Counted from the first letter of the stretch, positions 5,020-60,475 are shown. The stretch is DNA of 64,000 nucleotides from Octopus vulgaris (GCA_951406725.2 OX597827.1:46686001-46750000); one strand, 5' to 3'. Numbers and translations are program-made. The notes: generated from the sequence alone by a model not told the origin.

Positions 5020-5237
5020 AATAAGTTAATCCAAACATGAAAACACAAAGAGAAAACACAACAACGCGAGGACGTGGAACAAATATAGTATTATTGGACG
5101 CCCAGGAAGGAAGGGAAGAAGGAGGGTTTAACGTTTCGAGTGGAGCTCTTCGTCGGAAACATAGGAGAAGGAAAGATCCAGAGAAGGGAAGACAGAGGAA
5201 AGAAATCGCCAACGGTACACACGCGGTCACATTTTGA
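5020..5237 (-). repeat. ~215 bp dispersed repeat carrying a hammerhead-like motif (Penelope pseudo-LTR-like); second copy 26440-26655(+)
   Basis: Two clearly homologous copies, each containing C(T/C)GACGAAGAGCTCC(G/A)CT(C/T)GAAACGTTAAA. Confidence 0.75.
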
Positions 5238-7017
5238 ATGACCAGAAAATTCGGGTGAGAGGTTTAGTCGATTAAATCGAGCCCACTGTCAAAGTGGTAC
5301 ATATTTTATCGACCCCGAAAGGATAAAAAGCAAAGTCGATCCCGGCGGAATTTGAACCCAAAACGTGAAGATAGACGAAACGTCGCTAAGTAGTTTGCCC
5401 TGGTGTGCTATCGACCGCTTTACCAATATTCATAACAGAGATAGGAACCAACAAAAATACTTATTCTTCCGGTTCATGCATGTAAAATTAGTAACAACTC
5501 CACCAACTGAAAAAAAAAAATCAAAGCAAACTCGGTAATAACAAGAACAATGAAAAACAACAAAACAAAAACCAACAAGAAAATAACGAAATCTATAAGT
5601 AGGCAAACAAACAAACAAACAAAAAACAACAGTAATAAACCAACAGCAACAACAACATCAACAACAGCAAAGGCAAAGGAACATAAAACAATGAGTGGTG
5701 GTGAGTCGATCAGATTTGGTTAATTTGCAAGTTTGGACTTTTTCAGGCGACGAATCTTTGAGATTTGTTGTTGGTAAAAGTTTAATATAAAACAAAAGCA
5801 GAAATGTTTACAATGAAAGACATCTTCCCCCAGGCTTCTCGTCTTGTTAGGCTTGGATGGAAAATTACTCTTCCTGTTTCTTTTAGAATATTCTTTAGAA
5901 TTATCTTTCTCTAGATTTTTCCATTCTCTCTTTCTCTTTCTCTTTCTTTGTTTCTCTCTCTCTCTCTCTCTCTCTCTCTCTCTCTCTTTAACTATCGTTC
6001 TTCTCGCTCTTATTTTTTCTCTCTCTCCTTCTCCCTTTCTTTTTCTCTCTCTCCCTCTCTCTCTTCTCTCTCTCTCTCTCTCTCTCTCTCTCGCTGTATA
6101 CATAATATCGCTTCAAGTGCTTTTCTGCTACTTCTGTTTACAGTGCAATTTGAAAATGTTTCGTAAGAAACTTGGCTGAAATGATGATGTTGAACTATGT
6201 TAGATGATGACGAAGATGACGACGATGAGGATGATGAAAGGTGATGATGATGATGATGATGATGATGATGATGATGATGAAGAGCAATAGGAGAAAGACG
6301 ATGAAGGGGTGGCATTGGGATGACAGAAATGATGATAATCATCATCACCATCATCATCATCATCATCATCATCATCATCATAATCATTATCATCATCATC
6401 ATTGTCGTCATCATTATCACCATCATCATCGTCGTTGTTGTCGTCGTCGTCATCATCATTCATCATGTGAATGAGTGGGCGGATTGCGATTGTGGTTTTT
6501 ACTTTATCAATTATATGTGAACACAAGAAGAAGACGACGAAGAAGAAGGAGGAGAAGGAGGAGGGTAGAAACAAACAAAGACAGACAAAGGCGGAACGAA
6601 ATGAACATGTGCGCGTGAAGTAGACAAAAGTGCTTGGATATATGTGTTAGAAACACACATACACACACTCAAACACACATACATTACTATATATATATAT
6701 ATATATATATATATATATATACATACATACAAGAAAACAAAAAAAAAATGGAACAAGAACGTAACAGGCGACGACAAAACATCCGGACAGTAACACAATA
6801 CAAAAAAGGACAGAAAAAAAAACAAGGACGAGTCATTCGGAGTTTTCTATCTTCAGTTGAGTTCCAGATTTTCTCAGTAGTTTCGGCCGGTTATACATTA
6901 TTATTATTATTATTATTATTATTATTATTATTATTATCATTATTATTATTATTATTATTATTATTATTATTATTATTATTATTATTATTATTATTATTAT
7001 TAATGATAAAAAATAAC

Positions 7018-7270
7018 TGTTTCCTTCTCGAGCCATGCCAGGCTCATAAAGGCCGGTTTCCTGGTATTAGTGGCGTATAGATTCCCCACCTGGATGGGAC
7101 GCCGATTACTCGTAGGAATAATCATTTTTGCTTTACCAGCTGAGTGGACTGGAGCAACGTGAAATTAAGTGTTTTGCTCAGAACACAACACATTGCCCGG
7201 TCCAGGAATCGAAACCACAATCTTACGATCATGAGTCCAACACCCTAAACACTAAGCCACGCGATTTCAC
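7018..7270 (-). mobile_element. tRNA-derived SINE, head H2 plus tail T3; related copy 49738-49950(+)
   Basis: GTGGCTTAGTG..GGTTTCGATTCC head, CORE-like middle, tail GGCGTCCC..CCAG.TGGGGAA..ATACGCC..GGAAACCGGCC. Confidence 0.8.
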
Positions 7271-56614: not shown

Positions 56615-57512
56615 TGACCTGACATTCCAGACATTCTTGACATTCGGACATTTGAGACATCCATGACATTCCTGACATTCCGTCATTCCTGACATTCCAG
56701 ACATTCTAGCCATTCCTGACATTCCAGACATTCCAGACATTCTAGCCATTCCTGACATTCCAGACATTCCAGACATTCCTGACATTTCTGACATTCCGTC
56801 ATTCCTGACATTCCAGACATTCTAGCCATTCCCGACATTCCTGACATTCCAGACATTCTAGCCATTCCTGACATTCCAGACATTCCAGACATTCCGTCAT
56901 TCCTGACATTCCAGACATTCTAGCCATTCCTGAAATTCCTGACATTCCAGCCATTCCTGACATTCCAGACATTCCAGACATTCCAGACATCCATGACATT
57001 TCTAACATCCCAGACATTCCAGAATTCCTGACATTTCTGACATTTTTGAAATTCCTGACATCACTGGCATTCCTGACATTCCCGACATTCTAGACATTCC
57101 TGACACTCCAGACATTCTTGACATTCCAAATATTCCTGACATTCCCGATATTCCCGAAATTCCTGACATTGCCGACATTCCAGACATTCCAGACATTCCA
57201 GACATTCCAACATTCCTGACATTCTTGACATTCCTGACATTGCAGACATTCGTTAACGTCAAATCATTTAACGTGACGTTATTTGACGTTGCTTTAAATG
57301 ACGTGAAAGGACGTGACGTGGGATGGCCTGAAATGACGTGACGTTAAGTGACGTTAAATTACGCGGCATGATGTGACGTTAAACTACGTTAAATGACGTT
57401 AAATGTCGTTAAATGACATTCCTGACAATTCTGACATTTCTGACATTCAGGAATGTCTGGAATGTCGGGAATGTCAGGAATGTCAGGAATGTCGGGAATG
57501 TCAGGAATGTCT
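56615..57512. repeat. 9-bp minisatellite (CCTGACATT/CCAGACATT) with a TGACGT-rich insert and an inverted terminal block
   Basis: Roughly 70 units at 56615-57250; ACGT-rich stretch 57255-57415; orientation flips at ~57448 to (GGAATGTCA)n. Confidence 0.92.
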
Positions 57513-60475
57513 GAAAAAGCAAGCACTAAGTCCTGGGCAGACCTAAGTACCCTAAATATATCTAAAAGAGAAAATCTTCGGCACATCTCGAGACACGTAT
57601 TTATCGCTGAAGAGGGGAAAATTCTTATGGATTAACCCCGAAATTGGGAACAATACGGTAATAACGGATTTTTTAGAAACTTCTATCGATTTGTTTCGAG
57701 ACGCATAAATAATAATGGTTATTGACAATTTTGTCTTTTTTTCGGCATATTTGGCATTAGAATTTTTCTTATGATCTTATCTTGTAAGTTATTTATACAT
57801 TTAACCTTTAAAGGTACTTTTTGATATGCTGGCCATCGATAAAATTATTTTTTCGAAAAAATTTTTATCCTACATTTGTTATAAATTTAATAGTGTTCAC
57901 TTCCGGATTCTCTCTGAAAGTTTCTAGATCGAATCACACGTGTCTCGAGATGTGCCGAAGATTTTCTATTTTGGATATGTTTAGGGTACTTAGGTTTGCC
58001 CAGGACTTAGTGCTTGCTTTTTCCATGGGTATGAGTAAGTATTCCATTTATATCTTACGTATTTATCGCTGAAGAGGGGAAAATTCTTATTGAATTATCC
58101 CGAAATTGGGACCAATACGGTAATAACGGATTTTTTAGAAATTTCTATCGGTTTGTTTCGAGATGCATAAATTATAATGGTTATTGACAATTTTGTATTT
58201 TTTTCGGCATATTTGGCATTAGAATTTTTCTTTTGCCCTTCTTTTGTAAATTACACACATATATATATATATATATATATATATATATATATATATATAT
58301 ATATATATATATATATATACATATATATATATATATACATGCATAGGTTCTTACAAATGCACATGTATAAGTATTTGCGTGTACTCGCATGTGCATATAT
58401 ATATTCATATATATGCAATATACACACATGTATACGCGCGTAGAAATATACACAGACACAGGCAAATGTAAATTTATAACTAGTTGCAGTTGGCTACCTT
58501 CTGTTAGTCTGATATTTTAAAGTTTTGGAAGGCAATTTTGATACGGTATCGGCTGTTGGTATGTTGATGTATTCCAGCTTTTCAATAATTCAACAGCTAC
58601 AATCATGCAAAAGCTGGAATAATTCAACATTTAAAATAATTCAACGATTGGAATAATTTTTCAGTTGAAGTAATCTTACAGTCGACCACTTCCGCCAACC
58701 GCTTCATTATTGCTGTTCCGGCGTGATATAGAAATTCGAAGAAACGGGTTCCTACCAAATGCAACTATTTATATAATAGTTATTATATTATTATATAATA
58801 TAATATAATATATATATACACACACACATACATACATACATTCATTCATATATACATATATACATACATACATTCATTCATATATACATATATACATACA
58901 TACATACATACATACACACACACACACACACACACACACACACACATATATATATATATGATGTATGCATATTCGCATATAAACATGAGCACAAACACGC
59001 AGACACACACACACATATATGCATCTTTCGTCTTTGTATTTGGTTTGTATGATTATTTATGTGAATTCTTGTGTTGAAGCATATTTTATTGGGTCTGGGG
59101 AGAGTCATTCTCTTTTAGCGCCTTATTACTTAACACACTCACCGGTTCGATTTCCACTCATTTACTTATTTATCTTTTCTAAAATTTTCGTTCCGTCTAG
59201 CAACCTCTTCAATAGCCGTTGACACTTGCATATTCATGTATTACTGTGTTCATGTTTGTGTGTTTGTATGTGTGTGTTTGTGTGTGTGTGTGTGTGTGTG
59301 TGTGTATGTGCGTGTTTGTATGTGTGTGAGTATGTACTTCTGTCTCCTTGTGTGTGCATGTTTGAGTCTGTCTATGTGTATGTGTTTGTGTGACTATGTA
59401 CGTGCGTCTGTTATGTTTAGATGTATCTCCATATGTGTCCGTGAAATATGCGTGTGTGTATATGGTCGTGTGTTTCAGTCTTCATTTGTGCATGTGTGTG
59501 TGTATGTGTGTGCGTGTCTGTCCGTATTACCTATCTATCTATCTATCTATCTATCTATCTATCTATCTATCTATCTATCTATCTATCTATCTATCTGTCT
59601 GTCTGTCTCTCTGCGTATGTATCTCTCTCTCCATCTATCTATCTATCTATCTATCTATCTATCTATCTATCTATCTATCTATCTATCTGTTTACTTATAT
59701 ATCCATTTACCTATATATATAGGGGTATATATATATATATATGGGTATATATATATATATATATATACATGGGTATATATATATATATGGGTATATATAT
59801 ATATATATATATATATATATATATATATATATATATATATATATCAATAATACAGTGATTGTTTCTTATCAGGAACAAAAAGTTTAATAGGACTGCTATA
59901 GAAGTGCTCAATTGAAAGAGACAAATATATCAAACAAAGGTTATAGAACAAACAAATGCAAGGTTATAATGTTCGAATTATGAAATGTTATGCGGATGAC
60001 TTTGCATTTGTTTGTTCTATAACCTTAGTTTGATATATATATATATATATATATATATATATATATATATATATATATATATATATATATATATATATAC
60101 ATATATATATATATACATATACATATATATATACATATATATATATATATATATATATATACATATATATACACACACACACACACATATATATATATAC
60201 ACACACACACACACACACACACACACATATATATATATATATATATATATATATTTATATATATAAAGAATGGAGTCGACGATTTTAACAAAATTCCTTT
60301 ACTCTCGACACATGTTTCGAAGGCTGCATATTCCTAATTCCGAAGGAATAAAGGGTGCATTATGCCGCCATGAAAAACATGGCAAATTAAAAAAAAATAA
60401 AAAAAACACGCAAATTTACACACGAGAATATATATATATATATATATATGCGTGTGTGTGTGTGTGTGTGTATGT

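Follow-up and report, generated by a model that had tools for sequence, protein, structure and literature searches.

We analysed a 64,000-nt stretch of Octopus vulgaris DNA (GCA_951406725.2 OX597827.1:46686001-46750000; hereafter the window), AT-rich animal DNA loaded with microsatellites, in which short repeats carry minimal hammerhead ribozyme motifs (min-HHRs) comparable to those of the pseudo-long terminal repeats (pLTRs) of Penelope-like elements (PLEs). Seven such motifs, assigned to four families (a to d) in an earlier note on this DNA, were all present at the positions and on the strands recorded there (7/7), apart from the end of motif a1, which lies at 26551 and not at 26550. The palindromes described for them were recovered as ACGU (a1, a2, b1 and b2), AGCGCU (c) and AAUU (d), while b3 reads ACAU and its palindrome is therefore broken. 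A perfect CUGANGA core is found in one of the seven motifs only, a1.

Family a is represented by two copies. The element a1 (26440-26655, + strand, ~215 bp) has (TA)n at both sides and is identical to its sister a2 (5023-5238, − strand) in 194 of 216 columns. The hammerhead of a1 (26517-26551, +) consists of the core CUGACGA, an extra A, a 4-bp stem II with a G10.1-U11.1 wobble, the ACGU palindrome, U at H17 and a 4-bp stem I, and that of a2 (5126-5160, −) carries a U4C lesion with its stems intact. The two copies begin and end alike at both the 5′ and the 3′ side, which suggests, as judged from sequence, that family a is a non-autonomous unit of ~215 bp.

Three copies of family b were found. 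The element b1 (39415-39590, +, ~180 bp) ends at (TA)n and is identical in 172 of 187 columns to b2 (29794-29990, −), which is TA-rich on both sides. In the hammerhead of b1 (39465-39500, +), core position 6 is a U (39472), followed by N7 at 39473 and H17 at 39496; the hammerhead of b2 (29894-29929) likewise has U6. A diverged third copy, b3 (8735-8900, −; 78% identical to b1 over 111 bp), contains a hammerhead at 8822-8857 with U6, C at N7 and the ACAU mentioned above, so that U occupies position 6 in 3/3 window copies. Accordingly, the expectation that family consensuses would restore CUGANGA held for family a, where a1 and a2 mend each other's lesions, but failed for family b, since the majority core of the latter is CUGUNGA. 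The two families had been described as unrelated in their stems. This did not hold, as UUU/AAA forms stem I, GAG/CUC stem II and ACGU stem III in both, and their hammerheads agree in 27 of 36 columns. The canonical family a and the U6-bearing family b, having the same stems, therefore form a natural pair. Their flanks align weakly at best (p 0.02-0.03 before any correction in 3 of the 12 flank comparisons), and no close kinship was established through them.

Neither c nor d has a second dispersed copy within the window, so their description as families is not borne out here. Motif c (51179-51223, −) combines a U3.G8 core and a C.C opposition at 10.1/11.1 with the AGCGCU palindrome, and its stem I comprises 2 bp followed by a bulge. 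Its 5′ half is repeated in the arms of a 96-bp fold-back at 51199-51294 (self-BLAST 87.5%). Motif d (59179-59215, −) has a U3.G8 core as well, one G.G mismatch in stem II, AAUU and a 3-bp stem I. Two further single-copy candidates were identified. The motif at 20230-20267 (+), absent from the earlier note, has the core CUGACAA, in which a G8A lesion results in a C3.A8 pair, an AUAU palindrome, and 4 bp in each of stems I and II. The motif at 22960-22999 (−; motif 22996) shows a perfect CUGAUGA core, 3 bp in each of stems I and II and a non-canonical stem III; it may be a decayed hammerhead with a longer stem III (Hydra-type). A second GAAACGU-like word was noticed 20 nt further on.

An additional family, e, had been missed before. 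Copies e1 (57596-57657, +) and e2 (58058-58119, +) repeat each other directly at a distance of 462 bp and enclose an inverted segment of 86 bp (57938-58023), and e2 is followed by (TA)n. Both have a perfect core (CUGAAGA in e1), a long stem II and an extended stem I, and in both only three bases, ending in G, separate A15.1 from stem I. In e1, stem III and the cleavage triplet are non-canonical, and stem I includes an internal loop; the minimum free energy (MFE) structure (−19.0 kcal/mol) is a three-way-like fold. A diverged copy, e3 (39136-39194, +), lies directly upstream of b1 and has the core UUGACAA, so that the family contains both C3-G8 (e1/e2) and U3-A8 (e3). The shape of stem III in family e would reflect either decay or a distinct ultra-short form. 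The stretch immediately upstream of family e (55532-56354 and 56618-57516) contains nested inverted repeats as well as a degenerate minisatellite with 9-10 bp units and a fold-back.

The number of motifs was compared with that in shuffled sequence, a control proposed in the earlier note. The main descriptor allowed at most one mismatch in CUGANGA and demanded GAAA, at least 3 bp in each of stems I and II, an H17 other than G and a perfect palindrome of 4-8 nt from A15.1 to U16.1. It matched six times in the window (a1, a2, b1, b2, d and the new motif at 20230-20267), as against a mean of 0.025-0.035 and a maximum of 1 in 4 × 200 shuffles (global dinucleotide, local dinucleotide, 4-let and 5-let), where it has to be kept in mind that the descriptors were drawn up after the motifs had been seen and that copies of one family are not independent. 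The descriptor failed on b3, owing to its broken palindrome, and on c, owing to the 2-bp stem I and the C.C at the base of stem II. A looser version admitting all seven motifs gave nine matches versus shuffle means of 0.71 and 0.99 (maximum 4; 2 × 200 shuffles). With the strict core only a1 was matched (0-0.005 in shuffles), and strict core plus stem II alone gave four matches (a1, 22996, 57607 and 58069) versus 0.28 (60 shuffles). The window thus clearly exceeds its shuffled counterparts and the excess is real, while any single one of the singletons may be chance.

Whether all singletons could be chance, which would reduce the real families from four or more to two or three, was weighed on this basis. 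The loose descriptor, which is needed to admit c, matches about once per shuffled window, indicating that about one of c, d, 20230 and a match at 11111 may be fortuitous; dispersed sister copies of c, d, 20230 or 22996 do not occur within the window, each of the four motifs bears one to three lesions, and the descriptors were fitted afterwards. Conversely, d and 20230 pass the main descriptor, for which the null is 0.03 per window, 22996 unites a perfect core with stem II (null 0.28), and c possesses a 6-nt palindrome together with a PLE-like fold-back. We regard a chance origin of all four as unlikely.

Several properties that no descriptor demanded were nevertheless shared. One extra base after A9 together with a G10.1-C11.1 pair is present in a2, b1, b2, b3, d, 20230, e1 and e2 (a1 has G.U, and c lacks the G10.1-C11.1 opening of stem II), and families a and b have a U-rich 5′ flank. 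Of the features that the main descriptor did demand, an A15.1-U16.1 palindrome followed by H17 occurs in 6/7 of the motifs listed earlier and in 20230, not in e1-e3 or 22996, and stem I closes on the core with 3-4 bp in a1, a2, b1, b2, b3, d and 20230. The geometry is constant despite the different stems of a/b, c, d and 20230. It matches the published min-HHR consensus, i.e. U-rich 5′ flank, CUGANGA plus extra base, G10.1-C11.1 and GAAA-N-palindrome-U-H (PMC4209133).

For family b, evidence from beyond the window was available. Part of 39230-39600 was found in 20 sequence runs from 9 studies, none of which is on record as RNA, and four runs were aligned to 39330-39680 at at least 80% likeness, with letters tallied from 8% of depth. 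Run X1 yielded 26,995 contig records of family b and run X11 yielded 4,888; X11 is RNA by guess only, and its records are not evidence of transcription. Summed contig depth, which is not a copy number, rises about 500-fold at 39414 (from 674 to 351,541), marking the 5′ edge of the element, attains 6.9 million at the hammerhead and drops steeply immediately behind the (TA)n tract, past 39605, marking a sharp 3′ end. Extrapolated from the three copies in one 64-kb window, family b would scale to ~10^5 copies in a 2.8-Gb genome (genome size as given in PMC13282606). The large genome-wide population supposed earlier fits the contigs of this one family, but not the raw reads, in which family b accounts for only 8 (run X21) and 57 (run X22) of 12.9 million reads each, none of them at least 95% alike. 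Those of X22 that cover the motif resemble a single decayed copy with stem II broken and U6 kept. Label, sampling or filtering may lie behind this near-absence.

The contigs and reads also allowed us to examine variation within the 36-nt motif of family b. Letters reaching at least 8% were seen at five sites: N7 (C 10%, U 12-30%; X1 or X11), a base in the loop (X1, 24%), the CpG at 15.2 (X1, 10%), H17 (X11, U at 20%) and, at 10% in X1, the end of stem I. Of these five, three coincide with one of the 7 positions that we classed as free (p = 0.04), and the 11 core positions contain none. At position 6 (39472), no letter other than U reached 8% in X1, X11 or X22.

Taken together, we consider it likely that the dispersed repeats carrying minimal type I hammerheads are the 3′ pLTR ends of several PLE families, left in (TA)n as non-coding stubs that are either truncated or of unit length. 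The PLE pLTR origin put forward in the earlier note is well supported by analogy (min-HHR consensus, (TA)n, layouts), but no PLE open reading frame (ORF) accompanies the motifs in the window. That PLEs carry min-HHRs is in itself known: Cervera and De la Pena (2014, PMC4209133) reported them by the thousand in each genome, belonging to many families and mostly occurring singly, and an Octopus PLE with a hammerhead was reported in 2021 by Craig et al. (PMC8557442). The metazoan min-HHRs of PLE pLTRs share with the present ones the type I topology, the extra base after A9, G10.1-C11.1, the short stem I, the U-rich 5′ flank, the A15.1-N-N-U16.1 palindrome that replaces stem III, and the occurrence of many heterogeneous families per genome, mostly as single motifs from truncated PLEs (PMC4209133). 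Both U3-A8 and U3.G8 cores appear in the figures of that paper, and the U3.G8 core of c and d recurs in its PLE-linked Saccoglossus(1) row. They differ in having A6 in 56/56 rows of Fig. S3, where family b has U6, and no cephalopod is among the species. A strong resemblance to family a, judged by eye, is shown by the Neptune pLTR min-HHR of Acropora digitifera (PMC4209133 Fig. S3, Table S1), which has nearly the same core, stem II and ACGU but a different stem I and different flanks.

The surroundings of the motifs are compatible with this origin. Adjoining (TA)n, reported for most copies in the earlier note, is clear for a1, b1 and b2, and the depth of family b ends in (TA)n, just as e2 precedes such a tract. 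It was, however, not seen at d, whose nearest (TA)4 lies 224 nt downstream, nor at a2 and b3, and (TA)4 within 120 nt downstream was found for 3/7 motifs versus a window background of 21%. Partial tandems and inverted copies as known from PLEs are represented by the fold-back at c, the e1/e2 repeat with its inverted segment and the abutment of b1 on e3. From Octopus, (TA)n-targeting PLEs of the Naiad and Hydra types have been described, as have tandem and inverted PLE layouts (PMC8557442). Hydra-1_Obim of Octopus bimaculoides carries a canonical hammerhead ~100 nt from its 3′ end and likewise targets (TA)n, but it has other stems and a longer stem III (4 bp plus loop), and no window family matches its row. 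An annotation of O. vulgaris assigns 6.83% of the genome to PLEs, divided into 190 families, and 15.12% to unknown repeats (PMC13282606); its supplement mentions neither hammerhead nor ribozyme.

Under the PLE origin, two motifs on one transcript of a parent element would pair their palindromes (ACGU etc.) into a shared stem III. As suggested by published in vitro work on other min-HHRs, such a dimer would cut after H17 and thereby trim the element RNA; monomers of min-HHRs showed no cleavage and dimers low cleavage in PMC4209133. A PLE enzyme with reverse transcriptase (RT) and GIY-YIG domains might subsequently act in trans on the RNA, copying it into (TA)n with the 3′ end as starting point and often breaking off early. 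No cleavage is predicted for the genomic copies, given that these occur singly and most of them are damaged.

Several observations weigh against a PLE origin or narrow its basis. None of the 284/284 six-frame segments of the window (at least 45 aa, low-complexity frames filtered out) contained a PLE RT or GIY-YIG domain by Pfam, and the link to a PLE ORF is therefore by analogy only, although the absence is expected for short stubs. By eye, no window family matched the hammerhead row of Hydra-1_Obim or the 3′ ends of Naiad_Obim and Naiad_Ovul, as far as these are given in the accessible sections. At the gathering score, Rfam returned only a tRNA for the window; at E≤10 it found no hammerhead in a1 and e1, and none was among the 150 of 604 matches listed in an E-value scan of the window, where microsatellite-miRNA matches dominate. 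The MFE folds of the isolated motifs were mostly not the active fold, and in self-dimers the palindrome was paired as required only for c and, without its stem I, for d; MFE folding of monomers and self-dimers did not discriminate. Motif c passes the loose descriptor only. A second block of family b (39534-39557) equals the hammerhead in X1 contig depth, i.e. the hammerhead is not uniquely conserved. The low read counts in X21 and X22, which bear the same species label as X1, do not fit a very high copy number there, and the evidence from beyond the window covers family b only. The missing Rfam hammerhead and the weak MFE folds might even suggest that all motifs, those of a and b included, are products of pattern-seeking in AT-rich repeat DNA. 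This is refuted by the 200-fold excess over four shuffle types, and the match in undemanded consensus features and the confinement of variation to tolerated sites speak against it as well, leaving it practically no probability.

We also asked whether the elements are retrozyme-like, as had been proposed, that is, non-LTR retrozymes occurring as tandem 150-400 nt repeats with type I hammerheads and giving rise to small circular RNAs. The unit length of ~190-215 bp lies within this range, the type I hammerhead in a small non-coding unit is a common trait, a1 and a2 have their two ends in common, head-to-tail joints occur in small number, and e1 and e2 are direct repeats. Published non-LTR retrozymes, however, carry canonical hammerheads in tandem arrays and give circular RNA molecules (Cervera and de la Pena 2020, PMC7229834), while the window motifs are minimal and all copies of a and b are solo, without tandem arrays of the family units. 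A canonical type I hammerhead with a 6-bp stem I and contacts between loops 1 and 2 was not encountered; stem I has 3-4 bp in a, b and d and is extended only in family e. Tail-to-head joints of family b amounted to a handful of contigs (at least 6 rows in X1 and at least 1 in X11), the deepest among the joints listed reaching 128 versus ~10^6 on the element, although long (TA)n tracts break short contigs and joints are thus under-counted. Moreover, retrozymes have been set apart from the min-HHRs of PLEs, for which a dimer model was proposed (PMC7229834, PMC6765202). We therefore judge a retrozyme identity very improbable and retain the PLE origin.

What stands out in family b is position 6: although A6 is held to be an invariant base of the core, this widely amplified family has U fixed there. 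Among published hammerhead rows, U6 was found in 0/90 (56 in PMC4209133 Fig. S3 and 34 in PMC8557442, the latter all with A6); the uniform A6 of the 56 rows follows from the descriptor of PMC4209133, which required it. No natural A6U hammerhead was found in print, in a literature on PLE hammerhead variants that was incompletely covered and whose descriptor-based tables exclude U6, and the accessible part of PMC11014351 contains nothing on position 6. The nearest precedent is the natural A6C hammerhead of phage Bcep176, which cleaves at <0.1 per min, slowly in Mg2+ and well in Mn2+ (PMC3088659, PMC7151607). It shares with family b a natural substitution at core position 6, but it concerns C in a single phage sequence, whereas in family b the U is fixed across a repeat family.

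One interpretation is that U6 marks a natural variant under selection that is active and cleaves in dimeric form, possibly with a changed preference for metal ions or assisted by protein; such a variant is compatible with the PLE origin, and the two are not mutually exclusive. All subfamily states observed, with A, C or U at N7 and A or U at H17, have U6, the other core positions being invariant, and b1 and b3 are identical at 30 of 36 hammerhead positions versus 64 of 92 downstream and 29 of 52 upstream. The A6C hammerhead, good in Mn2+, further implies that position 6 can change in nature. On the other hand, single mutants of the CUGA turn had low activity in a full mutagenesis of a type III hammerhead and were not rescued by a second change except for the C3/G8 swap (PMC3088659, PMC7151607, PMC9901934). 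Compensatory stem changes did not reach 8% in family b, look-alike motifs from other contigs have A6 throughout (11/11), and a single mutation in a successful non-autonomous master would explain the fixation equally well. An active U6 variant hence appears rather unlikely to us. Most likely, the ribozyme of family b is dead or very slow and the family, amplified with U6 fixed, would have spread without efficient cleavage. We tentatively entertain, though with more doubt than confidence, a broader possibility, namely that family b is a very high-copy non-autonomous PLE derivative whose undescribed CUGUNGA core is under selection across subfamilies, whether the A6U ribozyme is active or the motif serves the PLE enzyme as a recognisable fold that does not cut. 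If so, either outcome for CUGUNGA would bear directly on the role of hammerheads in PLEs; their function in endonuclease-bearing PLEs is regarded as unclear, and they may simply parasitise these elements (PMC8557442). Should family b not cut, stubs of this kind would have no need of cleavage in order to spread; should it cut, searches based on CUGANGA would have missed a ribozyme class.

Searches in other sequence collections placed these motifs in a wider context. The exact motif of family b was absent from metagenome and viral contigs, and a looser a/b pattern permitting A or U at position 6 identified the 11 look-alike loci, all in metagenome contigs and none in prokaryote genomes. No PLE ORF was recognisable by eye among their frames of at least 110 aa. 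Seven of the loci align with families a and b across the whole motif; among them, the motif of L001/L006 reads like the Acropora Neptune row. Since this Neptune-like block also sits in unrelated flanks (L002, L005 and L010), it does not fix a clade. The contigs further contain a second min-HHR-like group with an ACAUGU palindrome (L002 1747-1777, L005/L008 2077-2107, L009 224-254 and L010 4001-4031), located in a shared repeat unrelated to the flanks in the window. Inspection by eye of the published 3′ untranslated regions of Naiad_Obim and Naiad_Ovul (PMC8557442) showed in both the word CUGUUGA together with a hairpin and GAAAC on the upstream side of the CUGAUGA half-core. The geometry of this region is not that of a min-HHR and it has no likeness to family b, yet it represents another U6-type box, the second, among the ends of Octopus PLEs.

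Apart from the hammerhead repeats, the window includes an open frame of 552 aa (44074-45732, +) in which a zinc-binding region accompanies the C-terminal half of a reverse transcriptase, with best relatives at 60% identity. Considered as a mobiliser of the hammerhead repeats, it was rejected: it lies between (TAA)n tracts (44000-44073 and 45963-46011), no hammerhead is nearby, and the homology search named no PLE. Its C-terminus resembles that of a long interspersed nuclear element (LINE) with a restriction-like endonuclease, and the frame may belong to a young, 5′-truncated LINE of the Dong/R4 type. A broken piggyBac-type transposase (DDE_Tnp_1_7; 78-897, −) is split over two frames with a (TCA)n tract inside, and a tRNA-Gly(TCC) gene was assigned by Rfam and ARAGORN at 16858-16929 (−). 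The commonest dispersed repeat (~410 bp, 76-90% identical between copies) occupies 2015-2425, 9035-9444, 16287-16774, 36268-36687 and 38730-39076, in addition to fragments. Of four protein matches to a frame from this repeat, three were predicted Octopus vulgaris proteins, in keeping with an Octopus host; as its frames are chance frames, those proteins are likely repeat-derived misannotations. Finally, a tandem repeat of 329 bp, 98% identical and containing TTAGGG-like words, was found at 11451-12178.

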